Source: Candidatus Heimdallarchaeota archaeon
GTDB lineage: Archaea > Asgardarchaeota > Heimdallarchaeia > Heimdallarchaeales > Kariarchaeaceae
Direction of reading: 5' to 3'
DNA length: 22,536 bases
NCBI GenBank assembly: GCA_015523565.1
Contig: WAKA01000004.1
Coordinates: 1-22,536 of the forward strand
The translations under genes and the position numbers were made by a program. Positions 1 to 22,536 of this stretch are shown here, one piece after another. Numbering within the stretch: the stretch's first letter is position 1; every line of letters starts with the position of its first letter. The notes beneath the pieces were generated by a model, which was not told the origin of the DNA, searched no databases, and was given only the letters and a program-made list of their open reading frames with translations.

Positions 1-620
1 AACAGCTCGACAGCCTGATGGAAGAGATAGTTAAAAATTATTTGATATACAAAGAATTCAAAAATCAACTTGATGCATATTTGGCTCGAAAGGACAGGTT
101 AGTCCCTGTGGAAACCATAGAGCAGTTGGAAGAGAAAATCCTCAAGAGAGCTGAAGGAATTGCCAAGAAGAAAAACGTAAATCCAGCAGGCAAAACCTAT
201 ATCACGCAAGAACAGCTTGACAGCCTGATGAAGAAGATATTTAAAGATTATTTAACACATAAAGAATTCAAGAATCAACTTGATGCATATTTGGCTCGAA
301 AGGACAGGTTAGTCCCTGTGGAAATCATAGAGCAGTTGGAAGAGAAAATCCTCAAGAGAGCTGAAGGAATTGCCAAGAAGAAAAACGTAAATCCAGCAGG
401 CAAAACCCATATCACACAAGAACAGCTCGACAGCCTGATGGAAGAGATAGTTAAAATATATTCTGCATATAAAGCAGAAAAAACACATATTACACAAGAA
501 CAGTTCGATTACGTAATGGAAGAGATATTTAAAAAATATTCGACATACCAACCAGGCAAAACTTATATCACGCAAGAACAGCTCGACAGCCTGATGGAAG
601 AAATATTTAGATCCTATACA
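1..620 (+). repeat. In-frame tandem repeats within rpoA2: two 210-bp (70-aa) units (1-210, 211-420), then 78-bp (26-aa) period units starting at 421, 499 and 577
   Basis: The anchor aacag(c/t)t(c/t)ga recurs at 1, 211, 421, 499 and 577. By hand count units 1 and 2 differ at 14 of 210 positions. The peptide KT(H/Y)ITQEQ(L/F)D..M..I recurs. Confidence 0.95.
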
Positions 621-3053
621 TTTGCCGAAATGGAACCTGGCACATCTGCGGGGGTTGTTTCTGCACAAAGTATTGGAGAACCAGGAACACAAATGTCATT
701 GAGTGGAGATGAGATTGTCCTAATAATGGATGAAAACGTTGTCCAGACGGTGTTCATTGGTGATTTCATTGATGAGCTATTGATGAGCGAAAAAGTAGTC
801 AAGCAGGGGGATACGGAATACCTTGATTTTCCAGAAGATTATCACGTCTATGTGCCTGCTGTTTCTGAAGAGGAAACCATCCAATGGAAAAGACTGAAAC
901 AGGTCAGTAGACATGCACCAAATGGAGATCTTCTCCACGTTAAAACCGCAAGTGGTAGGCAAATCATTGCCACACCAAGTCATTCCTTCATTACACGAAA
1001 GAATGGAAAAATCGTTGCGGTTCGTGGAGATCAACTTACAACAGAAGATTTTGTCCCAATTGCGATGGGCATACCAACAATCAATCCAATTTCCACAATC
1101 TATTTTGAGGAAGACAGCGTCAGGTTGGGACACACAGTTATTGAACAGGCATTGGTAACACCTCAAGGAGAGATTGTGGCACCTTCAGAAAGCTCAAGCA
1201 AGTTTTCCCTTCCTCTGACAGAGACATGGGGATATTTCTTGGGAACATTGATAACAGTGGGATACAATGACGGGGAAGAACTCACGATTGCATCATCCAA
1301 TCCCAATATTTATGAGGAACTTGTGGCATATTTTGAAGAAAATGACCTTAATGTATCCTTGGCGAGAGACCATGTGGAAAACCAACTTTATGAAATTAAA
1401 ATTACAGGAGAGGATCTTGCCTATGCAATGGACTTGTTGATTGATTCCTTTGATGAAGGGACTTCCACTCCTGTTTGGGTATTGAATACGCCAAATGATT
1501 TCATTAAAGGGTTTATCCAAGGAGTTTTCGATCATGGAGCAGATGTAGAAAACGGCATTGTTTTCAAATTCCAAAACCCCGACTTTGTTAAGCTTCTTGC
1601 CCATATGCTTGGAAAGTTTGGCATATTTGCATTGATTGACACCCAATCTGAAACGTCATCCCTTCAAATACCAGTTGAAATGCTTAATCAATTCAATGAT
1701 GTTGTTGGATTTAGGTCACCTTCGAAAGCAAATGACCTATTGACAAAGATTTCCCAAGTTGGCAGAAAAGATTCTGTTCCCGGACTCAAAGAAACATTGA
1801 ACCAATTAAAATCAAAATTGGGAATTGATTTAGAAATCAAGGATGCGATCAGCAGGGAAGAAATTCTTGAAATTATTAAGAAAGCCCAGGAAGCAGAAAA
1901 TACAGATGAGGAAATACAGCAACTTGTCAAGGCATATGAAAGCCCCATTTATTGGGATCGCATTGTCTCAATAGAATATGAGAAACCATTTACAAAATAT
2001 GTTTATGATTTTGCGGTAGAAGGTTTGGAGACATTTACAACCTTTGATGGCATCATCACCCACAATACCTTGAGAACTTTCCACTTTGCAGGGGTCAGGG
2101 AAATGAATGTCACATTGGGGCTTCCTAGACTTATTGAACTGGTGGATGCAAGAAGAAACCCAAGCACCCCTTCGATGACCGTTGCTCTCAAAGGAGAATA
2201 TGCCTCGGATGAGACAAAAGCAAAACAGGTTGCACAGAATATCGAACTTACAACCATCCATAGCGTGGCAAAAGGGCTTGAAATAGATCAAATACATCTC
2301 AGGGTCAATATCTTGCTTGATGAAGAACTCCTGATTGATAAGGGAATTACTGCGGAAGATATCAAGCAAAAGATCATTGAAAAAAGAGTTGCACAAAAGG
2401 TCATGGTCGAAGAAAATCTGATTATTGTTACACCAGACAAGGAAGACCCGACACTTCAAGACCTTCAAAAACTTTCTGAAAAACTCAGGCTTATACCCAT
2501 TAAGGGATTGCGAGGAGTAAACAGGGTGATGATCCGTAAGAAAAAGATTGATGAGGGAGATGACGAAAAAGTCGAATATGAAATACTTACGGAAGGAAGC
2601 AACTTTAAGCAATTGATGAGGGTTCTTGGAGTCGATCCAAGAAACTCATATACAAACCACATCCATGAAATTGCAGAAACCTTGGGTATTGAAGCCGCAA
2701 GAAATGCAATCATCAAGGAAGCAAAGGAAGTCATGGAAAAACAGGGGCTTGAAGTTGATGACAGACATATGATGCTGGTGGCTGATCTGATGACGTTTTC
2801 TGGAGATATCAGACAAATAGGAAGACATGGTATCTCTGGAGAAAATGCATCAATCCTTGCAAGAGCAGGGTTTGAAGTCACAGTCAAACACCTGCTTGAC
2901 GCGGCTGTCAGAGGAGAAGAGGATCACCTTGTCGGCATCATTGAAAATGTCATTGTAGGTCAAGAAATCGCAATAGGCACTGGGATGGTTGATTTGACCA
3001 TTTCTCCAAATTATAGGGAATTCGCACCCAAAAAACAAAACAAATCGTCGTAA
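3..3053 (+). CDS. rpoA2: DNA-directed RNA polymerase subunit A'' (Rpo1C, or the C-terminal part of a fused Rpo1), intein-containing, 5'-truncated by the window edge
   Basis: Hallmark motifs SAQSIGEPGTQM|TLRTFHFAG, NVTLGLPRLIELVDAR, LGIEAARNAI, VDDRHMMLVADLMT, IGRHG, ARAGFE and ENVIVGQ..IGTG. The frame is open from base 3 (QLDSL before the ATG at 18), so the true start is probably upstream of the window. Confidence 0.97.
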   Translation, partial: QLDSLMEEIVKNYLIYKEFKNQLDAYLARKDRLVPVETIEQLEEKILKRAEGIAKKKNVNPAGKTYITQEQLDSLMKKIFKDYLTHKEFKNQLDAYLARKDRLVPVEIIEQLEEKILKRAEGIAKKKNVNPAGKTHITQEQLDSLMEEIVKIYSAYKAEKTHITQEQFDYVMEEIFKKYSTYQPGKTYITQEQLDSLMEEIFRSYTFAEMEPGTSAGVVSAQSIGEPGTQMSLSGDEIVLIMDENVVQTVFIGDFIDELLMSEKVVKQGDTEYLDFPEDYHVYVPAVSEEETIQWKRLKQVSRHAPNGDLLHVKTASGRQIIATPSHSFITRKNGKIVAVRGDQLTTEDFVPIAMGIPTINPISTIYFEEDSVRLGHTVIEQALVTPQGEIVAPSESSSKFSLPLTETWGYFLGTLITVGYNDGEELTIASSNPNIYEELVAYFEENDLNVSLARDHVENQLYEIKITGEDLAYAMDLLIDSFDEGTSTPVWVLNTPNDFIKGFIQGVFDHGADVENGIVFKFQNPDFVKLLAHMLGKFGIFALIDTQSETSSLQIPVEMLNQFNDVVGFRSPSKANDLLTKISQVGRKDSVPGLKETLNQLKSKLGIDLEIKDAISREEILEIIKKAQEAENTDEEIQQLVKAYESPIYWDRIVSIEYEKPFTKYVYDFAVEGLETFTTFDGIITHNTLRTFHFAGVREMNVTLGLPRLIELVDARRNPSTPSMTVALKGEYASDETKAKQVAQNIELTTIHSVAKGLEIDQIHLRVNILLDEELLIDKGITAEDIKQKIIEKRVAQKVMVEENLIIVTPDKEDPTLQDLQKLSEKLRLIPIKGLRGVNRVMIRKKKIDEGDDEKVEYEILTEGSNFKQLMRVLGVDPRNSYTNHIHEIAETLGIEAARNAIIKEAKEVMEKQGLEVDDRHMMLVADLMTFSGDIRQIGRHGISGENASILARAGFEVTVKHLLDAAVRGEEDHLVGIIENVIVGQEIAIGTGMVDLTISPNYREFAPKKQNKSS
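696..2066 (+). mobile_element. Intein (457 aa) in RNAP A'' with a degenerate LAGLIDADG homing endonuclease domain
   Basis: Interrupts GEPGTQM|TLRTFH. It starts with Ser (SLSGDEIVLI, block A), has block B (IATPSHSF), blocks F/G (VYDFAVEGLETF...IITHN) and a +1 Thr. Endonuclease-like blocks are YFLGTLITVG, FIQGVFDHGA and LLAHMLGKFGI. Confidence 0.95.
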
Positions 3054-11171: not shown

Positions 11172-11912
11172 TCATTTGGAACCAAATATCCTGTTCTTGA
11201 GTGGAGTATAAATCTCATCCCGTAGAGTATCAATCCATAGGGTAATGGGATCCAAGATTCTTACATTTCTTTTCTCAATCATGAAAGTGAAAAGAATAGT
11301 CCCGACAAACCCCAATGGTTCTCCCATCCTGTCGTGGGCAAGAGTCCAGGCATACTCATGGGAAACACCAAAATCATATGAAAGGACAGTTGTAATGGCA
11401 ATCATGGCGGCAATCCTGAGGGTATTGCCAATGAACAGGAAAAGCAGAACCAAAAAGGAAGCATTGATCCTGTCCTTTATTTTCGCGGGTGTTGACCAGA
11501 TCAAACCCAACAACAACGACCCTGCCTGCATCCCTGTACAAGCACGGACAATAATGTAATAATTGGGTACACCAACCTCACCTTCAATGGAAATTGCAGG
11601 ATATGTGGCTCGCGAAGAGTCATAAAGATTGTAAAGTATCCGATCAACGAAACCAAGAGCAGAGGTTTGGTCTTCATAGATGAAAAGCCGTGGGTTAAAA
11701 CCAAATATGTTCAGGAAGAAATAGCTAACCTTAGTTGTCAGCATTTCCAGACCAAAATATGGGGGGAATACATAAAGCACCACGGTCATCATGAATGTAA
11801 ATCCAAAAGAATATAATGCATAGTTTCTTCTTTCTTTGCCCTTCAGCGTAAGTAATGGATGGGAATCATCTTCAGTTGGAATCAGTCTTTCAAAATCAGG
11901 TAGTTCCAGCAT
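11172..11912 (-). CDS. Archaeosortase/exosortase family transpeptidase
   Basis: Catalytic triad motifs IIVRACTG (Cys), GNTLRI (Asn/Arg) and LAHD (His) in a multi-TM protein. The ATG at 11912 with upstream GGAG is preferred over the GTG at 11936. Confidence 0.85.
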   Translation of the reverse strand: MLELPDFERLIPTEDDSHPLLTLKGKERRNYALYSFGFTFMMTVVLYVFPPYFGLEMLTTKVSYFFLNIFGFNPRLFIYEDQTSALGFVDRILYNLYDSSRATYPAISIEGEVGVPNYYIIVRACTGMQAGSLLLGLIWSTPAKIKDRINASFLVLLFLFIGNTLRIAAMIAITTVLSYDFGVSHEYAWTLAHDRMGEPLGFVGTILFTFMIEKRNVRILDPITLWIDTLRDEIYTPLKNRIFGSK

Positions 11913-11997
11913 ACATTTTTCTCTCCTTTTATTCACTTAAATAACTATCCTTTCTGGAATACTACAAAGATAAACAGACATGTCTTCTTTTGACAGG

Positions 11998-12525
11998 TCA
12001 TTCCTTCCTTGCCAAAAGCTCATCAATTGCATTGTACATCGTCAAAAATAGACTTTTATAACGATTCAAGTCATCAACACTTTTTTGTGAAAAATATTTC
12101 CTCATTCTAACCCTGAATCTCTCCAAAGTATCTGGATCATTCAAATCAGGCATTTCTCCATGAAACAAGGGGTTGTTGACCCTTAGCTTGTCAAACACTT
12201 TTAAGCCTACAGGAGTGATTTGATACATCTTCTCCTTTTTGTTTTCCGTTTCAACCTCATTGATCATCCCCAGCGACAGCATCTCACTCAAGATTGGATA
12301 AACAGACCCTGGTGATGGAATCCACTTATGGTGGGAGTATTCCGAAATGAAATTGATCAAATCCATGCCTGTCAGCATTGGAAAATTCCCATTGCTGTCA
12401 CGATCACGAAACCGTTTGAGGATGATTAACCTGAGAAAACCGCGTTTCACCTTTTTTTCCCATTTGCCATATGCATCATTGACTTTGGCTTCCAGATCAT
12501 CACTTTCCCTTAAAACAGAAGACAT
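11998..12525 (-). CDS. PadR-family transcriptional regulator
   Basis: RGFLRLIIL...G.DLI..I......W.PSPGSVYPIL..M...G.I...K.YQITPVG, the PadR winged-helix signature. Confidence 0.9.
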   Translation of the reverse strand: MSSVLRESDDLEAKVNDAYGKWEKKVKRGFLRLIILKRFRDRDSNGNFPMLTGMDLINFISEYSHHKWIPSPGSVYPILSEMLSLGMINEVETENKKEKMYQITPVGLKVFDKLRVNNPLFHGEMPDLNDPDTLERFRVRMRKYFSQKSVDDLNRYKSLFLTMYNAIDELLARKE

Positions 12526-12701: not shown

Positions 12702-14258
12702 ATGTTAATTGGTCTTGTAAGAAGACTGGGTGAGATTAAATCCAATCAGTCTGAACGAATAATACTTGAGACAGCCATTAAAAATCAAAAACCATACAAA
12801 CAGAAGGAGTTCTTCGCGGTTGACGTAAACCTTGAAGATGGGCAATATAAAATCCATCTTGAAGAATATGATTCAAATAAAGAATTATTATATCTCAGGG
12901 GTATTAAGGGAGGTCATTCGGAAAACTTATCTCCAGTCCTCAATGTTAAACCAAAAGAAAAAGAGAAGGAAAAGATACTCAATATTTCGAAGTTTCCTTC
13001 TGAAAATACATTGTTTCGAAAATATGGTCTGAAAAGAGAGGAGTTCCCAATTTATACAAATTTGATCAGATGGTTTGAAAACAAAAAGGAAAATATCCAA
13101 GAAGACATTCAATCACTAATAACACAGAACTACATAAACGAGAAAACAAAAAAAATTGGAAATAATGCCCCTACAATGGTTGTTTTTAAAGTGTTAAAAG
13201 ACGGAGACCATTGTTATCCTGGAGAAATTGATGAGTTTGTACAAGCATACCTCCACATGAATACACCGCCAAAACCAAAAAAATCACAAATTGGCACATG
13301 CATGGCCTGTGGTCAGAAAAAACCATTGACAACCACAAAAGACATTAAAACAGACCTTTTTGAATTCTTTTCCCTTGATTTGAATAATTTTATTATAGGA
13401 ATGGATAATTCCAAAACATGGCAATTGACCCTTTGCTTGGATTGTCAAGACCTTGTAAAACTAGGACTTTCTGTGTTGGACAATGAATTGAAATTCAGGG
13501 CATACACAAAAAAAATTGATTCCAAAAAAACCTTGTTTGTTGATCATTCACTTCTGCCAACTGCTTATGGGGAACAATTAGTTATCCAAGTAATAAACAA
13601 TTTGAAAAAAATCAGAAGGGAAAAATCAGAAGAGGAAAGACAGTCCATCCGTAAAGAAATAGAAGAGATCCAGCAAAGGATGGAAAGAGCAAACAAAAAA
13701 GCAATAAGAAAATTGAAAAGTGAGCTAAAGAAAAAGGAAGAGACATTTGGTAAAATAAAAGACTTTGCACAGATTGATGAAAGAGAGGTGTTGAAACAGT
13801 TTGCTGAAAAAGGAGTATCGTATGTGGACCTCTATTATATCAATGAATCTGTGGGGGTTGGAAACTCAAAAAAGGTATTCATGGACATGACATTTGTCAA
13901 TGCCAAAACTCTGAAGGAACTTTTGACACAGATTGACAGGATTGAACAGGAATTCGCAAGCAAAAACCTCCTTGTCTGGAAAGGAAAACCATACAGGTTT
14001 GAATTCGGAAAATTATATTCACTGTTCACCATAAAGATGGCAGACTTAGTCAGGAAAGCATTACTTACAAGAATCACTGTCAAGGAAAGAGAATTGGCAA
14101 GAGATGCCTTGAAAAGCTTAAGAGACCCATTTTTGAAACTTAATGCAGGGATTGATAAAAACATATGGATCAGTAGGGAGGAATACCATCAACGACTCAG
14201 CACTTTCCTCTTTGTTGACCAACTGTTGAATTCACTCAACCTATTGAAGGAGAAATAA
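12702..14258 (+). CDS. cas8b: CRISPR type I-B large subunit Cas8b (Csh1/TM1802-like), lacking its C-terminal helical domain
   Basis: First gene of the cas operon, upstream of cas7/cas5/cas3. Zn ribbon CMAC...LCLDC, FFSLD..NF, YL.G..G..S.NLSP. GGAGG precedes the ATG. Confidence 0.75.
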   Translation: MLIGLVRRLGEIKSNQSERIILETAIKNQKPYKQKEFFAVDVNLEDGQYKIHLEEYDSNKELLYLRGIKGGHSENLSPVLNVKPKEKEKEKILNISKFPSENTLFRKYGLKREEFPIYTNLIRWFENKKENIQEDIQSLITQNYINEKTKKIGNNAPTMVVFKVLKDGDHCYPGEIDEFVQAYLHMNTPPKPKKSQIGTCMACGQKKPLTTTKDIKTDLFEFFSLDLNNFIIGMDNSKTWQLTLCLDCQDLVKLGLSVLDNELKFRAYTKKIDSKKTLFVDHSLLPTAYGEQLVIQVINNLKKIRREKSEEERQSIRKEIEEIQQRMERANKKAIRKLKSELKKKEETFGKIKDFAQIDEREVLKQFAEKGVSYVDLYYINESVGVGNSKKVFMDMTFVNAKTLKELLTQIDRIEQEFASKNLLVWKGKPYRFEFGKLYSLFTIKMADLVRKALLTRITVKERELARDALKSLRDPFLKLNAGIDKNIWISREEYHQRLSTFLFVDQLLNSLNLLKEK

Positions 14259-14261
14259 AGC

Positions 14262-14705
14262 ATGACCGAAAAATCTTTTGAGGAAAAACTTAGGGAAGAC
14301 AATGCATTCCTTGAGAAAATCTTCAACACAAACTATTTTGAAAACAGACCTGATAGGCAATTGGCTTACCTTGTCGGAAGATATTATTCAAAAGCCACCT
14401 ATCTGCAACAGAGGGAGCTAAAAACAAATAGCCTCATTAAGAAGCTTCCTAATTTCACCAAACGACTAGATCTGCAAAAGATCAATTCAATGATGAACGA
14501 ATGCAATCTGGTGCTGCAGAAAATAGCATCAATGAAGAAAACCAGCAATGTGATGCTTGCAGACCTTAGGAACAGAATTTTTGACCTAATGCAAGCCATT
14601 GAGGAAATCACCAGCGACCATAATGAGCTGGGAATTGCATTCCAAATGGGCTACGACAGCTCACTTGCACAGTTAAGAACTGAAGAGGAGGAAAACAAAA
14701 AATGA
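14262..14705 (+). CDS. cas11: Cas11-like small subunit (equivalent to the Cas8b C-terminal domain), encoded as its own ORF
   Basis: 147-aa all-helical protein between cas8 and cas7. AYLVGRYYSKATYLQ and AFQMGY match the Cas8b/Cas8c C-terminal (Cas11) pattern. AAGGAG precedes the ATG. Confidence 0.7.
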   Translation: MTEKSFEEKLREDNAFLEKIFNTNYFENRPDRQLAYLVGRYYSKATYLQQRELKTNSLIKKLPNFTKRLDLQKINSMMNECNLVLQKIASMKKTSNVMLADLRNRIFDLMQAIEEITSDHNELGIAFQMGYDSSLAQLRTEEEENKK

Positions 14706-15625
14706 ACAAAAGAAGAGAAATCGTATTCATTTATGATGTAAGAGACAGTAATCCAAACGGAGACCCCGATGACCAGAACAGACCAAGAATGGACGAAGAC
14801 GACTATAACGTTGTCACTGACCTAAGACTCAAAAGAACAATCAGAGACTATTGGTTGACAAAAGAGTCGGAAGGAAACCAAGTCTTGGTAAGAAGAAAAG
14901 TCGTGGAAAAAGATGGAACAGTCATGTCAATGAAACAATTGATTAAGGATGCTCTTGCAATAGACAAAGTAGAGGGTGATACCCGCGAAAAGATCAGAAA
15001 GGGACTCCCTGAAAAATTTGTTGATGTAAGGGCATTCGGAGTTGTAGGAACCGTAGAAGGCGCAAATGTTGCATTGACGGGCCCTGTACAGTTCTCCATT
15101 GGAAGATCAATGAACAAGCCAACCATCAAAAGCTATTCCATCTCATCAACAATAGCCTCTGAAGAAGGAAAAGGACAGGGATCATTGGGAGAGTTCCATA
15201 CCATAGACTATTCACTCATCAAGTTTCATGGCATTGCCTGTGAATACAATGCAAAAGAAACCAATTTCACAGAAGATGACCTCAAATATGTCTACGAGGG
15301 AATGTGGAACGGAACCAAAAGACTCAATACCAGAAGCAAAGTCAACCATGTTCCAAGACTTCTTTTGGCGGTTGTTTCCAAAGAAAGAGAATTCCAAATT
15401 GGAGACATAGATAAGGGATTGATCCTTGAAAATGAGGAAGGAATCAAAACACCTGACCAAGCAATCGTCAATATTTCCGGTTTACTTCAAAGGCTCAACC
15501 AATTCAAGAATTCCATTGATTCAATTGAATTGAAGGAGGACGGAACATTGACATTTACTGACGGCTCAAAAACCTCCCAAAAAATAGAAGATTTTCTTGG
15601 AGGATTCAATATCATCCATATCTAA
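14702..15625 (+). CDS. cas7: CRISPR-associated Cas7 (Csh2/Cas7b family)
   Basis: NPNGDPD..NRPRMD, VTD.RLKRTIRDY, DVRAFG, TGPVQFS.GRS, MWNG....TRSK....PRLLL. ATGA overlap with the upstream gene. Confidence 0.95.
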   Translation: MNKRREIVFIYDVRDSNPNGDPDDQNRPRMDEDDYNVVTDLRLKRTIRDYWLTKESEGNQVLVRRKVVEKDGTVMSMKQLIKDALAIDKVEGDTREKIRKGLPEKFVDVRAFGVVGTVEGANVALTGPVQFSIGRSMNKPTIKSYSISSTIASEEGKGQGSLGEFHTIDYSLIKFHGIACEYNAKETNFTEDDLKYVYEGMWNGTKRLNTRSKVNHVPRLLLAVVSKEREFQIGDIDKGLILENEEGIKTPDQAIVNISGLLQRLNQFKNSIDSIELKEDGTLTFTDGSKTSQKIEDFLGGFNIIHI

Positions 15626-15637
15626 GGAGGTCAGGGC

Positions 15638-16486
15638 TTGAAAGCATTGGTGACCACCATCCAAGGGGATTTCGCCCATTTCAGGGTTCCTGAAACCACA
15701 CGGGAAAACTTGAGCTATCCATTCCCACCAAAAACTGCAATCATCGGAATGTTTGCCGCCACTTTAGGAATTCAAAAAAATGAATATTGGGACGAAAACC
15801 ACCCTTTGCAATCACTAAAGGTCGCCTTGGAAATCATCAACCCCTTGAAAAGAACTTTTATGAAAGTCAATTACATCAGAGTAAAGGAAATAATCAACAT
15901 TACAAGAGGAACAAAAATTTTCTTGCCTGAAGACCCTTTTGCCACAGAACTTATTGAATTAAAAGGAAAGGAATACAAGAAAAAGAAAGACTTCTCAAAA
16001 TATAAAATGGGAATGAATGCACCCTTCAAAATGAACATGATGAAGGACGTCGCCTATAGGATATATGCAACAACAGACAACAAGGAACTATATGATGAAC
16101 TGAAACAAAGATTCATTGACAGGAAATTCACTTTCCCGCCATATCTGGGACATGCAAACCTGTTGGCACACTGGGTTTATGAAGGGGAATACGAAATAAA
16201 ACCAATCTACGAAATGGATAAAATCGAATGCCATTCAATCGTTCCCTTCTCAGCTTTGGATATGCAACGGGAAACATACGACCTGTCGGGAATCCCTGTC
16301 ATTTATAATGTCCCAATGACCATGAAAGCGGTCAATCCCAAGAAAAAGATTTCAATCTGGAACATGATCGTCGACAAAACAGATTCAGTATTCCTTGTCA
16401 GACCAGATGAACCTTTTGTCGGATATTTCAAGAAGGGACATGCATATACTGTCAAGGATATTGAAAAAACCATTACCTTCCTATAG
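15638..16486 (+). CDS. cas5: CRISPR-associated Cas5 (type I-B)
   Basis: GDFAHFR.P......SYPFPPKTAIIGMFAA.LG, DV.YRIY, F.PYLG. TTG start preceded by AAGGAGGT. Confidence 0.93.
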   Translation: MKALVTTIQGDFAHFRVPETTRENLSYPFPPKTAIIGMFAATLGIQKNEYWDENHPLQSLKVALEIINPLKRTFMKVNYIRVKEIINITRGTKIFLPEDPFATELIELKGKEYKKKKDFSKYKMGMNAPFKMNMMKDVAYRIYATTDNKELYDELKQRFIDRKFTFPPYLGHANLLAHWVYEGEYEIKPIYEMDKIECHSIVPFSALDMQRETYDLSGIPVIYNVPMTMKAVNPKKKISIWNMIVDKTDSVFLVRPDEPFVGYFKKGHAYTVKDIEKTITFL

Positions 16487-19054
16487 GTGAACCATTTGGA
16501 AGAGTCCAAATTACATGACTTCCCCTATGGAAAAATACTTTGGGCAAGACCAGACCAACCATTGGAACAGCATCTATCCAGCTTGAGAAAAAATATCCAC
16601 AAATATAAATTCAAGATTCCATTTTTCCAATTGCCCTCAGATGCATTGGGAATCCAAAGTGATGAGACAATCCACCTGCCACATTGGCTGGTTATGGACT
16701 TGATGAGCATCCTTGTCGCCTGCCATGATTTCGGGAAGTTGTCCCCGCATTTCCAATATAAAATCATCGGCAACAAACTCCCAAAGCAGCAAATCGCATT
16801 AAGCTACCATACAAAGACCAGCGGGTTTTTCGCCTATTACCTCTTGGACGAATATTTCCATCAGTACAAGAAGGAAATCGTGAATAATTTGCCAGACAGC
16901 AGGATATTCAAAATCATCAGGGACACCTTCACAGCAAGTATAACCTATTCAATCATCAACCACCATACACCAAAACTGAGCACAACATTGGGTGAAAAAA
17001 TCGAACTTGAAAATGAAACACTCATAACCATTGCATTGCTGGTCAACCATGTCTATCCACAAAAGTTCATTGTCGACATCCCAAATGAAGTGCACAATAA
17101 AGAGTCATCAGTGGCAGAACTGCTGCAAGCCGCATTGAAATTGTCGAAACCAGCAGAACACATCATTGAGAAGGCACTTGAAAGACTTAAAGAACTAGTA
17201 GACCCAATTGATTTGGAAATCACACTTGAAACAACAGATATCAGGGAGATGGATACCAATTGGCTTTATGACCTTTATGACGAACTGGAAGAATTGTGGG
17301 AACAAACACAGGAAAAACCCTTGCTCTTCAATGCATTCCTTTTCATGCATTCCATGCTTGGAAACCTGGATGAATGGGATGCCCGAACATTCCACCAAAA
17401 TTCCGACCAGCATGACGACGAATTTGATTGGGACTATAACTGTTTCATGCCTTTTGACTCAGTTGACAGATTTAGGATCAAAAAGTTTGGATCAATCAAT
17501 AACCATGATGAACGATCCGCAAGAATAATTTCGCTCAGAAACAACCTCTATGAAAATGTCAGGGACACATCCATTCCTGACAACCCATCTGCATTCATAA
17601 TCGAGGCACCGACAGGAGCCGCTAAAACATTGGCAATGATAAATCTCGCCCTTAAACTCGCAAAAAAGCAACACGGACAGACAGGTAAAACCCCCCGCAT
17701 CATCTACGCCCTTCCGTTCGTGTCAATCACCGATCAAGTGGGAGAAGTAATCAAAGAGGTATTGAAGCAAAACAACATTTCCACTAAAAACCTGATCGTC
17801 CACCACCAGTACTCTGAATTCCCAGAATATGTGTTCGAACCCATGTTTGACGAGGACAAGGAAGAGGTCACAATTACACGGGCATTAACTGCAACTAAAC
17901 TATGGCATGCACCCATTATTGCAACAACATTCGTCTCACTCATGAACACCATATTTTCAGGAGTAAAAAGATCAATCCTAAGATTCCATAGGATTGCAGG
18001 ATCAATCATCATCCTCGATGAGGTGCAGTCAATTCCGCCAAGGCATTGGGAAATCGTGTCAATGACCCTAGACCATCTAATAAGGCATTTCAACAGCAAT
18101 ATCATCATCGGGTCCGCCACCAATCCAAAACCGCTCTCAAATTCAATCAGGAACACCGTGAAAATAAAGCCAGACACAAAACCATTGCAAATGGTCAACA
18201 GGTATACACTGAAAATAGAACATCAACCCCAGACAATCGATCAATTCATAGAAAGATTTTCAGAACCCGTAACCACAATGATCGTTGTCAACACAAGAAA
18301 ATCCTGCAGGACAATCTATGACAACCTGATCAAGAAATTCCCTGAAAACCATGTATTCCTCCTGTCAACTTGGCTAAGACCTATTGACAGAAAAAGAACA
18401 ATCAAGACCATCCAGCAAAGACTGAAACACAATTTGACCACAATCCTCGTCACCACACAGGTTGTTGAGGCAGGAGTGGACCTAAGTTTTGATACAGTCT
18501 ACAGGGATTTTGCACCCCTCGATTCAATAATCCAAGTCGCAGGAAGATGCAACAGGAATTTCGAAAGGGAAATGGGAACCGTAAACCTCATCAACCTCGT
18601 AAATGAAAACAACAGCCCATTTGCACCGTTAATCTATGACAAGGTCTCACTGGAAGCAACTAAGGAACTACTTGAAAATGTCACTGAATTGGATGAACTG
18701 GAACTCAGAAAATTAACCCACAGGTATTACAGCAACATTGCTCAAAGAAGAGTCACATCAAAGGCACTCAAGGAAAGAATGATAACAGACATTCCAAAAC
18801 TGAGCCAGACATTCAAGCTTATCGAGGAAAGACCACAAACAAGCCTTGCCATTGTCCCCAAACGCTACCTCCAAATACTGAACTTCCAAAGGAAAACAAC
18901 AATAAAAGTCCTTAACCTTTTCACAATTGCAATAAGCCATAATGACCTGAAAAACATCAAGCACAAAAAGAGAAAAATCTCAGGAACAGAGGTGCGAATC
19001 ACCACAATAGAGGAATGCGACAACTATAGCAAAAAAGCAGGCTTGTCCGTCTAG
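16487..19054 (+). CDS. cas3: CRISPR-associated Cas3 (HD nuclease fused to SF2 helicase)
   Basis: HD domain L.QHL, CHDFGK, INHH, LD..DA. Helicase APTGAAKT, IIYALPF.SITDQ, ILDEVQ, SAT, VVNT, TQVVEAGVD.SFD, APLDSIIQ.AGRCNR. Confidence 0.96.
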   Translation: MNHLEESKLHDFPYGKILWARPDQPLEQHLSSLRKNIHKYKFKIPFFQLPSDALGIQSDETIHLPHWLVMDLMSILVACHDFGKLSPHFQYKIIGNKLPKQQIALSYHTKTSGFFAYYLLDEYFHQYKKEIVNNLPDSRIFKIIRDTFTASITYSIINHHTPKLSTTLGEKIELENETLITIALLVNHVYPQKFIVDIPNEVHNKESSVAELLQAALKLSKPAEHIIEKALERLKELVDPIDLEITLETTDIREMDTNWLYDLYDELEELWEQTQEKPLLFNAFLFMHSMLGNLDEWDARTFHQNSDQHDDEFDWDYNCFMPFDSVDRFRIKKFGSINNHDERSARIISLRNNLYENVRDTSIPDNPSAFIIEAPTGAAKTLAMINLALKLAKKQHGQTGKTPRIIYALPFVSITDQVGEVIKEVLKQNNISTKNLIVHHQYSEFPEYVFEPMFDEDKEEVTITRALTATKLWHAPIIATTFVSLMNTIFSGVKRSILRFHRIAGSIIILDEVQSIPPRHWEIVSMTLDHLIRHFNSNIIIGSATNPKPLSNSIRNTVKIKPDTKPLQMVNRYTLKIEHQPQTIDQFIERFSEPVTTMIVVNTRKSCRTIYDNLIKKFPENHVFLLSTWLRPIDRKRTIKTIQQRLKHNLTTILVTTQVVEAGVDLSFDTVYRDFAPLDSIIQVAGRCNRNFEREMGTVNLINLVNENNSPFAPLIYDKVSLEATKELLENVTELDELELRKLTHRYYSNIAQRRVTSKALKERMITDIPKLSQTFKLIEERPQTSLAIVPKRYLQILNFQRKTTIKVLNLFTIAISHNDLKNIKHKKRKISGTEVRITTIEECDNYSKKAGLSV

Positions 19055-19059
19055 ACATT

Positions 19060-19923
19060 TCAGAGCATATGAACCATGGTTTTACGCAAAAATACCCTGT
19101 CAAAGTCAAAACGCCCCAAACCCGCGGAACGCCCTCGTCCAACACCAGTCAAGAACCCCAATTTCAGTAAATGAAACATGATTTCGGCGGCATCCGCACT
19201 GTCCGCACCAAGCTTGACCAACCCAACCCAACCCTTATGAACCTGATCCTTGCCCGTATGAACTGTAATGATGGAACCCTTGGCATAGTGCAAACTAACA
19301 TGGTCATGCATGTATTTGACAGTGCTCTCCTCGTCAATTGCATTGTCAGGATACCAAACATTCCAGATGGACACCAAATTGGGAAAAATATACTTGGGAT
19401 CAGGCCATACAAAGAAACTGGAACCAGTACTGAAAGAAACAGGAGTCTGGAAACGAATGGCAACAGGATTTCCCAATTTTACCCCACCAAGCCTCGTGAT
19501 ATCAAAAGGAACCAATTGCAATGGCTCAAGAACCAAACCATCGTATTCTGCCCTCCAATTGCCTGAAAATACCTTCGGAATGACACTTGAAAGGGAATCA
19601 TTGCAGGTTGCCACATCCATGTACACAATCTCCCCCTCTTGCAATCCCGAATCCTTCGATCGCCTTCTCATCGGTGCACCAAAAGCAGTCCGCATCCTGT
19701 TGAGCAGGTCATTGCCAGACGAAGAAGGAAAATGAACCTTGCCAAATTGAGTCAACGAATAATCCAAGATCCCCTCCTGATCATGGACATCTTTCGCCAA
19801 ATGAGAATCATAGGCATCCAATGCCTTGAAAAACATGCCACGAGCCATGGCTCCCGAAAAACGGGGAATGGTTCCAAATGCCGCAGTCCTGAAAAACAAC
19901 CTGAAGTACTTGACTTCTCCCAC
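19060..19923 (-). CDS. cas6: CRISPR-associated endoribonuclease Cas6
   Basis: C-terminal Gly-rich loop GVGRGRSAGLG, RFQTPVSF, PDP..IF.NL...WN, GW.G.V, and an N-terminal A..VHD......YSL. Convergent with cas3. Confidence 0.9.
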   Translation of the reverse strand: MGEVKYFRLFFRTAAFGTIPRFSGAMARGMFFKALDAYDSHLAKDVHDQEGILDYSLTQFGKVHFPSSSGNDLLNRMRTAFGAPMRRRSKDSGLQEGEIVYMDVATCNDSLSSVIPKVFSGNWRAEYDGLVLEPLQLVPFDITRLGGVKLGNPVAIRFQTPVSFSTGSSFFVWPDPKYIFPNLVSIWNVWYPDNAIDEESTVKYMHDHVSLHYAKGSIITVHTGKDQVHKGWVGLVKLGADSADAAEIMFHLLKLGFLTGVGRGRSAGLGRFDFDRVFLRKTMVHML

Positions 19924-20744: not shown

Positions 20745-21719
20745 TCAAATCCCCAAAGGGTTTGTCAATGCCTCCCACCATCGGATTTCCCCAAGTCTCC
20801 CATCACTCCAAAGATATGCAAGATAACTGACTGCCCATGCAAACATGACCCCTGCAACCATCAGTGGCCGGGAAATCAAAAACCCTGCAATCAGGGAATA
20901 ACATGCAATCTTTACGCCATGGAATGCCGCATGTTGCAATGCATGTATCCCCAATGCATCAAGAAGGAGGTAAATAACCCAGCCTACAGCCGCAAAAATA
21001 GACAGGAATATCCAAAACACAGCAGGAAGAGCAATGATAAGCGATAGGTACGCCATGGAAACAGCAAAAACAGCAAGAATGAGTTTACGCGTATTCCCAA
21101 TGCCATAACGGACAGGAAAAGTCCTGACATTGCCCTTCAAATCCATGGGATAATCCCTGAGATCCCCCGCAATATGGGAGAAAAGGTCAAGAAGCCCAAC
21201 AAACAACGCAACCAAATATTGATGCCAATATCCAAAATAAGATGCCACAACCAGATAAAATGTCATCCCTGAAAATGTCCGGAACAAATATGTGAGAAAC
21301 GTGTACCGCTGGTGCTTGAAGTAGCCATAAAGAAGCCCGCAGACAATCATTGCCTCCAGCCAACCAAGGGTGACTAGCGAAGAGCTGAACGCAATCGCAT
21401 TCATCACGACCAATATCGACACAAGAAATATCGGGACGTATTTCGGGGAAACATATCCCGAAGTGAAAAGCCTATCCCGCCCCATCTCGGCATCCTCATC
21501 CCTGTGCATCCAATCGTTGAGACCAAAAAGGAAAGGCATCAAAAGGAACAGCATCAGCCATGCCATGAGAATTTCAAGAGGGGAGGGGGAAATACCGTTC
21601 AATGAGATCACCATCAAGACAATGACCATCTGGTGTATGATGTGAAAAGGCCTGACAAGGAGCAGGGACTGCCTGAACGGGAAATGACGGATGTTCCTGC
21701 TTGTAACCGCAAAATTCAT
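20745..21719 (-). CDS. UbiA-family prenyltransferase
   Basis: LVRP near the N-terminus, a first Asp-rich motif NDWMHRDED....R.R....G, a second motif DLRDYPMDLKGNVRTFPVRYG, and many TM helices. The ATG at 21719 is chosen because the longer ORF (21863) starts inside the terminal CRISPR repeat. Confidence 0.85.
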   Translation of the reverse strand: MNFAVTSRNIRHFPFRQSLLLVRPFHIIHQMVIVLMVISLNGISPSPLEILMAWLMLFLLMPFLFGLNDWMHRDEDAEMGRDRLFTSGYVSPKYVPIFLVSILVVMNAIAFSSSLVTLGWLEAMIVCGLLYGYFKHQRYTFLTYLFRTFSGMTFYLVVASYFGYWHQYLVALFVGLLDLFSHIAGDLRDYPMDLKGNVRTFPVRYGIGNTRKLILAVFAVSMAYLSLIIALPAVFWIFLSIFAAVGWVIYLLLDALGIHALQHAAFHGVKIACYSLIAGFLISRPLMVAGVMFAWAVSYLAYLWSDGRLGEIRWWEALTNPLGI

Positions 21720-21851
21720 TGCAACAACAAAGCAAGTTAGATTTTTAAAAAAAGGGAACAATGAAGGAAAAAAACATGACTGAGAAAAAATTTGCACTTG
21801 CAACCTTACGGCAATTCTAGAAAAGCAGTTCATTGGCGTCAGAGGATGGGA

Positions 21852-22536
21852 AAACCAATCCAATTTCTAGGTTTTAGAGCTTCGCGACAGAACTCGACAG
21901 AACTCGACAAAAGTGTTTCAATCCTATTTCTAGGTTTTAGAGCTTCGCGACTTAAAGCAACCTTTGGTTTATTATTCATTTGATGAAGAGTTTCAATCCT
22001 ATTTCTAGGTTTTAGAGCTTCGCGACCACAGCAACCATACATCCATTATCTGTCAACGGCTTGTGTTTCAATCCTATTTCTAGGTTTTAGAGCTTCGCGA
22101 CTGACAAACGAACATGAACTGTACATCACATTCCATCTATTTCAATCCTATTTCTAGGTTTTAGAGCTTCGCGACTATGCCTGCGAGCACCTGGTTATAT
22201 ATCCAGGTGCATAATTTCAATCCTATTTCTAGGTTTTAGAGCTTCGCGACGCGTTTTTGACCGCTGATATCAATTATGGCGGAACAGAATTTCAATCCTA
22301 TTTCTAGGTTTTAGAGCTTCGCGACGTTAATGTAAGAAGGGATGTATCGGAAAACCACCCAGTTTCAATCCTATTTCTAGGTTTTAGAGCTTCGCGACTA
22401 AGAAGGAAGAAGCAGTATTACAGGAAATCTAAAAGTTTCAATCCTATTTCTAGGTTTTAGAGCTTCGCGACTTTATATTAGTAACAATAATAGTCATAAC
22501 TATTTGTTGTTTCAATCCTATTTCTAGGTTTTAGAG
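21852..22536 (-). CRISPR. CRISPR array (trailer end): 37-bp repeat GTCGCGAAGCTCTAAAACCTAGAAATAGGATTGAAAC (minus strand), 10 repeats and 9 spacers visible, continuing beyond the window
   Basis: Repeats start at 21852 (degenerate), 21915, 21990, 22065, 22139, 22214, 22289, 22362, 22435 and 22509 (truncated). Spacers are 26, 38, 38, 37, 38, 38, 36, 36 and 37 bp. Orientation comes from the ATTGAAAC 3' end, the CCTA-GAAA-TAGG hairpin just before the 8-nt handle, and the degenerate repeat at the left end. Confidence 0.99.

Follow-up and report, generated by a model that had tools for sequence, protein, structure and literature searches.

In canonical type I-B CRISPR-Cas systems the small subunit of Cascade, Cas11b, is produced by internal in-frame translation of cas8b. 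This has been documented for the TM1802 locus of Thermotoga maritima (PMC13199841), for Haloferax volcanii (PMC11899642) and for Synechocystis PCC 6714, whose Cascade is deposited as PDB 8H67 (PMC11096372), internal translation of Cas11 having first been shown in bioRxiv 10.1101/2020.04.18.045682. All four sources describe type I-B as having no separate cas11 gene, and in the 2011 unification paper a small subunit with its own gene is listed for type III, I-E and some I-A systems and for no others (PMC3150331). A Shine–Dalgarno (SD) motif and an ATG inside cas8 or cas10d yield, in the canonical forms of I-B, I-C and I-D, a Cas11 identical to the C-terminal domain of the large subunit. Here we describe a locus with a different arrangement. 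The DNA analysed, referred to as the window, is a stretch of 22,536 nucleotides (nt) from Candidatus Heimdallarchaeota archaeon (assembly GCA_015523565.1, contig WAKA01000004.1, positions 1 to 22,536), in which a cas8b gene of 518 amino acids (aa) is followed by a distinct open reading frame (ORF) of 147 aa. It is highly probable that the locus represents a conserved I-B variant, in which cas8b stops at a domain boundary just upstream of the Cas11 start and Cas11b is separately translated, the split being ancient and under selection.

By its gene families the locus is type I-B. The large subunit belongs to the Cas8b family (Cas_TM1802, 90.5 bits against a Pfam cut-off of 25.1), Cas7 and Cas5 pass the NCBIfam cut-offs for the Csh2 and Cas5h types (TIGR02590, 227 against 171.55 bits; TIGR02592, 111.6 against 97 bits), and a single HD-helicase cas3, a Cas6 and an adjacent array complete the set. 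The Csa5-containing type I-A was considered and excluded by the one-gene cas3, the Cas_TM1802-family large subunit and the homology of the small ORF to the C-terminal domain of Cas8b. The window shares with canonical I-B the Cas_TM1802 family, the types of Cas7, Cas5, Cas3 and Cas6, and a small-subunit domain that starts at the same aligned Met, with an SD motif before it; presumably the two also have in common its place in the belly of Cascade. It differs in the stop before the Cas11 start, in the lack of a covalent Cas11-like domain and in that every copy of the small subunit would come from a separate gene.

The junction reads ...TTG AAG GAG AAA TAA AGC ATG ACC..., so that Cas11 is not nested within an uninterrupted cas8b and a TAA intervenes. 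The two ORFs lie in a common frame (14262 − 12702 = 1560 = 520 × 3), with one sense codon (AGC, 14259–14261) between the stop and the ATG (14262–14264). The initial annotation had described this layout, including an AAGGAG belonging to the 147-aa ORF, and the description proved exact on direct reading of the letters and in the ORF list. The same TAA and the same 518 + 147 aa layout are present in an independent NCBI assembly, GCA_027071915.1 (contig JALSYK010000595.1), in which only 2 of 5188 bases differ from the window.

SD-like motifs provide support for separate translation. AGGAG or GGAGG is found at −12 to −16 before cas8b, cas11b, cas7 and cas5; GGAGG lies 14 nt upstream of the ATG of cas8b and AAGGAG 14 nt upstream of that of cas11b (first base to ATG), the motif and spacing of cas8b, cas7 and cas5 being the same as those of cas11b. 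Among the other ORFs of the window an SD-like motif precedes only one, with a GTG start, and about 14 have none within 25 nt. As these motifs mark the four Cascade genes and few other ORFs, independent initiation at 14262 is supported, and AAGGAG or AGGGAG is kept at the same place across the genus. Judged from these motifs, cas11b has a start and a putative ribosome-binding site of its own. The scarcity of the motif elsewhere in the window is compatible with most genes of this archaeon being translated from leaderless or SD-independent starts, and with SD motifs being used in the cas operon.

The identity of the 147-aa ORF was approached through sequence profiles and predicted structure. The ORF matches the end of the PADLOC Cas8b model PDLC01343 (positions 426–533 of 535, E 2.3e-5); this was its sole PADLOC match, and neither it nor its relatives returned a model with the name Cas11b. 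In BLASTP it aligns to residues 516–644 of the 658-aa fused Cas8b of genome G016 (E 4e-10) and to residues 397–522 of 527, the last ~130 residues, of the fused Cas8b of genome G007 (E 1e-12). Both of these fused genes have an internal Met at the position of Met1 in the alignment with the stand-alone proteins, with AAGGAG (G016) or AGAGGAG (G007) ahead of it. The ORF is no chance frame, as homologues are found at E 1e-45 to 1e-63 and a profile search of 1.84 billion proteins gathered a family of 111 representatives. Three architectures occur in this family, namely stand-alone proteins of 133–170 aa, the C-terminal ~130 residues of proteins of 570–750 aa, and three tandem copies in proteins of 460–520 aa. 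The long, fused relatives are full-length Cas_TM1802 proteins (profile positions 1–601 of 602). Stand-alone relatives match the 134-position PADLOC model PDLC01518, which is labelled Cas8b, end to end; this suggests that curated profile sets already hold the split-off piece under the name of Cas8b. No significant Pfam or NCBIfam family was found for the small ORF, HEPPP_synt_1 being the one sub-threshold match. The profile search of PDB sequences with the Cas11 family returned chance-level matches only (E 0.3–0.7), as expected, since Cas11 families have no detectable sequence similarity across families (PMC11899642).

An AlphaFold (AF2) model of the small ORF, built on 51 family members, has six helices and a predicted local distance difference test score (pLDDT) of 92.1. 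The first 14 structural matches in the PDB after VIA re-alignment are all Cas8c C-terminal domains, Cas11c, CasB, Cas11a or Csm2. The best of these are residues 490–608 of Cas8c and whole Cas11c chains of type I-C (Z 8.6–7.1), followed by CasB of type I-E (Z 6.9), the weaker Cas11a of type I-A (Z 6.1–5.5) and Csm2 of type III-A (Z 4.5). Foldseek alone gave nothing at E ≤ 0.001, and its eight best rows are all I-C Cas8c or Cas11c. The ORF has the features of a Cas11 protein, that is, a small all-alpha helical bundle within the ~110–170 aa range, a Cas11-like fold and homology to the C-terminal domain of the large subunit. A separate Cas11 homologous to that domain was what the initial annotation had proposed, and the Cas8b profile end, the BLASTP alignments to fused C-termini and the fold matches all agree with it. 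On this homology and predicted fold, the 147-aa ORF is Cas11b, the small subunit of a type I-B Cascade, as a separate gene.

The upstream ORF shows the complementary picture. The window cas8b covers only positions 5–434 of the 602 of the Cas_TM1802 profile, and the model of the 518-aa protein (AF2, pLDDT 87.6) aligns to residues 1–485 of type I-C Cas8c (Z 10.1–9.0). With the large ORF corresponding to residues 1–485 and the small one to residues 490–608 of Cas8c, the two ORFs therefore equal one Cas8c-like protein cut where Cas11 begins, and a large subunit that lacks its helical bundle, as had been suggested, is indeed what the window encodes. The I-C Cascade of Desulfovibrio vulgaris (PDB 7KHA, 8DEX, 8DFO), with Cas8c and an internal Cas11c, is thus the best structural match of the window for both ORFs; unlike the window it has a fused gene, its crRNA (CRISPR RNA) is processed by Cas5 and it has no Cas6, and the sequence identity is only 11–13%. 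Types I-A (Csa5/Cas11a) and I-E (Cse2/CasB) share with the window a separately encoded helical-bundle small subunit, and I-E also the gene order of large subunit, small subunit, cas7 and cas5. The window differs from both in that its Cas7 and Cas5 pass I-B-specific NCBIfam cut-offs and in that its small ORF is homologous to the C-terminal domain of Cas8b and not to Csa5 or Cse2; its cas3 is unsplit, unlike that of I-A. Within the remaining large subunit, Cys200, Cys203, Cys245 and Cys248 (CxxC...CxxC) do not vary in any of the 26 N-terminal parts of Cas8b that were aligned, whether split or fused, which suggests a zinc-binding element. Residues 228–234, in the loop between the two Cys pairs, are the sole low-confidence segment of the Cas8b model.

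Whether homologous loci are split in the same way was followed across the relatives. All three other species of the genus (G001, G002 and G003) have two genes. The small ORFs of these species are 73%, 70% and 59% identical to that of the window and the large ORFs 57–60% and 42%, so conservation within the genus is higher for the small ORF than for the large one (69–73% vs 57–60%). Two genes are also found in other genera and families of the order, in G008 (two loci), G012 and G020, although the large subunits of G012 and G020 are only 25–28% identical to that of the window. Metagenomic loci (L024–26, L028–29) have the same order, cas8b (535–541 aa)-cas11-cas7-cas5-cas3, with more distant stand-alone homologues. 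The frames at the junctions differ. The junction of G001 reads ...AAG GAG TGA AC ATG... (frame +2) and that of G002 ...AAG GAG TGA GAAC ATG... (frame +1), G003 is in frame +2 and G012 in frame +1, while the window, G020 and both G008 loci are in frame 0; 4-nt overlaps also occur among the junctions of two-gene loci. With frames 0, +1 and +2 among the relatives, one nonsense change cannot explain the split, and the same-frame, one-codon geometry of the window is a one-in-three coincidence rather than a sign that the stop arose lately. At the second G008 locus (L020:345-3000, on contig C600), cas11b follows an ORF of only 306 aa, itself behind a further open frame, and the large subunit there may be more fragmented or have another organisation.

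The family profile was also searched against 400 Asgard genomes, of which 43 gave matches. Loci were classified by the length of the open frame, with at most 175 aa taken as stand-alone and at least 590 aa as fused. By this measure about 17 stand-alone loci (139–172 aa, in 16 genomes) compare with about 21 fused loci (599–752 aa), in addition to a few loci shortened by contig ends and two or three triple forms. The suggestion that the window shows a variant I-B architecture is thereby borne out, as a conserved form that is not rare. The reading of it as a gene fission caught in the act did not stand, since all four genomes of the genus that were compared and members of other families are split, in all three frames. 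On these comparisons the split is old, conserved and common in Asgard archaea, and neither an error nor recent.

Two trees were calculated, one of the Cas11 domain with 114 rows and one of the N-terminal part of Cas8b with 34 rows; both are unrooted, and support is given as SH-aLRT (Shimodaira–Hasegawa-like approximate likelihood-ratio test). In both trees a long branch with 99% support separates canonical Cas8b from a divergent, mostly split clade that holds the window. The canonical clade is fused in 19 of 19 rows of the N-part tree; in the Cas11-domain tree it comprises 38 fused rows and 15 rows labelled split, of which some come from contigs of a few hundred bases and may be fragments, and these rows were not counted as evidence. 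In the Cas11-domain tree the divergent clade consists of 24 split and 2 fused rows along with 35 rows contributed by triple proteins; in the N-part tree 10 of its rows are split, 3 are fused and 2 triple-linked. The window lies within an all-split sub-clade (95%) with G012 and G020.

The triple proteins are about 20 representatives of 460–520 aa with three tandem Cas11b-like domains (P0014, P0016, P0021, P0025, P0029–P0031 and others). Their genes sit right after a truncated cas8b (~500–524 aa) and before cas7-cas5-(cas7)-cas3-cas6-cas2-cas4, for example at L021:1910-3310 (also L022 and L023) and at L037:4998-6401 (G273:C17). Within the split lineage, the large subunits of these loci group together with 99% support. 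The triple loci P0014 (L021–23) and G273:C17 resemble the window in the divergent Cas8b/Cas11 clade and the truncated large subunit of ~500 aa and differ from it in the number of Cas11 domains per gene, three fused ones against a single one. An ORF of 486 aa in G020 (L015:9160-10620) and one of 482 aa in G012 (L016:8989-10437) stand directly upstream of the split cas8b; these were considered as triple-Cas11 genes and rejected, as they match neither the Cas11 profile nor any Pfam family. As a tentative proposal, which we regard as possible rather than probable, these forms could belong to an Asgard-enriched I-B sub-lineage with an uncoupled small subunit, on a stepwise route from fused to split genes to the triple-Cas11 gene, with occasional re-fusion. 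If true, this would offer a natural series on what determines the number and position of the small subunits in Cascade and on whether the covalent C-terminal domain of Cas8 is dispensable.

The same genome also holds the fused form. Its contig C49 (L036:1720-10024) carries a complete canonical I-B locus with cas6, cas8b, cas7, cas5, cas3, cas4 and cas1. The Cas8b there is fused (619 aa, Cas_TM1802 positions 1–601) and falls in the canonical clade, and the short, degenerate array has a different repeat (30 nt, 4 copies, L036:10497-10735). GGAGG stands at the usual distance before Met470 of this Cas8b, which is the expected internal Cas11b start. With the split locus of the window and the fused locus of C49, the genome would therefore use both ways of making Cas11b.

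The following mechanism may be proposed for the split system. A stop codon just upstream of the internal Cas11 start ends cas8b at the domain boundary, and Cas11b would be made solely from its own gene, using the SD motif within the last cas8b codons; the ATGA overlap of cas11b and cas7 suggests translational coupling. Several free copies of Cas11b would form the inner belly filament along the Cas7 backbone, in which the spacers of 37–38 nt would correspond to about seven Cas7 subunits. One Cas11b would sit, without a covalent bond, on the two final helices of the truncated Cas8b (residues ~462–511) and fill the position that the covalent C-terminal domain takes in fused systems, so that free Cas11b would occupy all belly positions. 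The last point follows by analogy with the Synechocystis I-B Cascade, which has the composition Cas8b1-Cas7b7-Cas5b1-Cas6b1-Cas11b3 and in which the C-terminal domain of Cas8b is the first belly position (PMC11096372). Selection would keep the split, which is the predominant state of the divergent Cas8b clade common in Asgard archaea.

Pairwise structure prediction of Cas8b with Cas11b gave an ipSAE (interaction prediction score from aligned errors) of 0.82, against 0.00 for the best control, with the contact on Cas8b helices 462–511. Among solved complexes 58 of 80 come up to this mark, against 2 of 110 mismatched pairs, and the docking runs agree in at least 98% of the contacts, with a pLDDT of at least 83 for the partners. 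The two proteins being halves of a split gene, the docking result may reflect only their likeness to the solved I-C complexes. In T. maritima I-B, Cas8b1 co-purifies with Cascade only if free Cas11 is supplied (PMC13199841); by analogy, this is consistent with Cas11 as the link that would hold Cas8b in the complex.

A number of points weigh against the main reading, that of a separately translated Cas11b resulting from an ancient split kept by selection. The Z scores of 7–8.6 are modest for a helical bundle, and the case rests on top matches that are exclusively Cas11 or Cas8 C-terminal domains, together with the sequence homology. No cas1, cas2 or cas4 was found within the window. In the mechanism, the translational coupling, the number of Cas7 subunits and the non-covalent docking are extrapolated from the gene overlap, the spacer length and the predicted contact. 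A further point concerns the direction of change, from a fused ancestor to the split or from an ancestrally separate gene to later fusions, which can be read only tentatively from unrooted trees. The three fused proteins of the divergent clade (G007, P0008, which is close to that of G007, and P0009) adjoin the split G008 locus with 99% support, and such nesting of fused proteins in a split clade means at least two changes of state.

It has to be asked, then, if the separate gene is ancestral in this Cas8b clade, the fused members inside being secondary fusions and no fission having occurred. The absence of a root, the nested fused proteins and the split as the majority state in the clade of the window would all fit this, and types I-A, I-E and III have separate small subunits as well (PMC3150331); both directions, fission and fusion, are discussed in bioRxiv 10.1101/2020.04.18.045682. 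Against it stand the sister TM1802-type Cas8b clade, for which the N-part tree has fused members only and the domain tree a fused majority even with the nominally split rows included, and Cas8c of the structurally closest system, I-C, which is also fused. Parsimony favours a fused ancestor on account of these two facts. Moreover, the junction coincides exactly with the internal SD motif and ATG of the fused genes. An ancestrally separate gene is therefore considered unlikely, though of the alternatives it survives best.

Far less credit is due to the idea that the in-frame layout is itself functional, read-through of the TAA giving a minority Cas8b-Cas11 fusion and with it one tethered domain per complex. 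The single codon in frame 0 seen here and the frame 0 found at 4 of 8 junctions (window, G020 and both G008 loci) would suit such a product, yet 4 of 8 is not distinguishable from the chance value of 1/3, and the closest relatives G001, G002 and G003, in frames +2, +1 and +2, show that it cannot be required. Of the stop codons TAA is also commonly considered the least leaky, and no read-through signal was found, no search aimed at one having been made. Read-through is accordingly very improbable.

The initial annotation had also named a recent nonsense mutation and a sequencing error as alternatives; that either of these, or an assembly error, broke a fused cas8b, the locus being an incipient pseudogene or artefactual, is next to incredible, for although a common frame with only TAA and one codon between the ORFs is what a single point change would leave, the same TAA stands in the independent assembly, the species of the genus and distant genomes at 25–28% large-subunit identity have two genes, several of them in other frames or with 4-nt overlaps, and both ORFs are intact across this divergence, the small one being the better conserved. 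The notion of an unrelated helical protein, a regulator or accessory factor placed between cas8b and cas7, can draw on the null Pfam/NCBIfam result and the null PDB sequence profile search and is nonetheless almost negligible in view of the homology to the C-terminal domain of Cas8b, the fold matches exclusively to Cas11 or Cas8 C-terminal domains and the gene position, which is fixed in every locus examined.

The features of the split locus are collected in Table 1.

Table 1. Features of the type I-B locus in the window (positions are those of the whole stretch)
Feature	Position	Strand	Evidence
cas8b, large subunit without Cas11-like C-terminal domain, 518 aa	12702..14258	+	Pfam Cas_TM1802, 1.5e-25
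AAGGAG, Shine–Dalgarno-like motif for cas11b, within final cas8b codons	14247..14252	+	sequence
TAA stop of cas8b, 3 nt 5' of cas11b ATG	14256..14258	+	sequence, ORF list
cas11b, putative stand-alone small subunit, 147 aa, predicted six-helix bundle	14262..14705	+	Cas8b profile, BLASTP, fold
cas7 (Csh2 type), start overlapping cas11b stop (ATGA)	14702..15625	+	TIGR02590, Pfam Cas_Cas7
cas5 (Cas5h type)	15638..16486	+	TIGR02592
cas3, HD nuclease and helicase in a single gene	16487..19054	+	Pfam Cas3_HD, DEAD, Cas3-like_C_2; TIGR01587, TIGR01596
cas6	19060..19923	-	Pfam CRISPR_Cas6, 7.9e-13
CRISPR array, ~10 repeats, running off the window end	21848..22536	- (inferred)	repeats 36-37 nt, spacers 37-38 nt

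The array would be transcribed from the minus strand, as the reverse complement of its repeat ends in ATTGAAAC and the repeat closest to the cas genes is degenerate. Contig C173 of the same genome carries the window repeat unchanged, beside two matches to Cas1, and contigs C211, C143 and C182 carry it with a variant 3' end; the array therefore lies in pieces on several contigs. The adaptation genes of the window locus are probably those on C173, the linkage being drawn from identical repeats and not from an assembled contig. An ORF called UbiA (20745–21863, minus strand) overlaps the first, degenerate repeat. Directly upstream of cas8b and divergent from it lies a PadR-family regulator (11998–12525, minus strand); the independent assembly has it too, and it may control the cas operon. 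Elsewhere in the window, NCBIfam identifies a heimdallarchaeosortase gene at 11172–11936, which assigns the genome to the Asgard archaea, and the gene for RNA polymerase subunit A'' (18–3053) carries an intein between two segments of Rpb1 domain 5 (Pfam Intein_splicing, 6e-20).

The split I-B locus is an incremental variant of a well-understood machine and not a new mechanism. It has practical consequences nevertheless. Pipelines built around a Cas8b of 600–700 aa will annotate these loci as truncated or the small gene as hypothetical. For heterologous expression, in which internal initiation often fails, the split loci already provide a design with two genes; in the study of T. maritima, Cas11 had to be expressed from a gene of its own (PMC13199841). 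The occurrence of split and fused I-B systems in one genome offers an internal comparison. For the family, the split form makes up roughly 40% of the Cas11b-bearing loci counted in the 400 Asgard genomes, and the lineage shows a second I-B solution, a Cas8b without its C-terminal bundle together with a stand-alone cas11b, that has been stable over long evolutionary distances.

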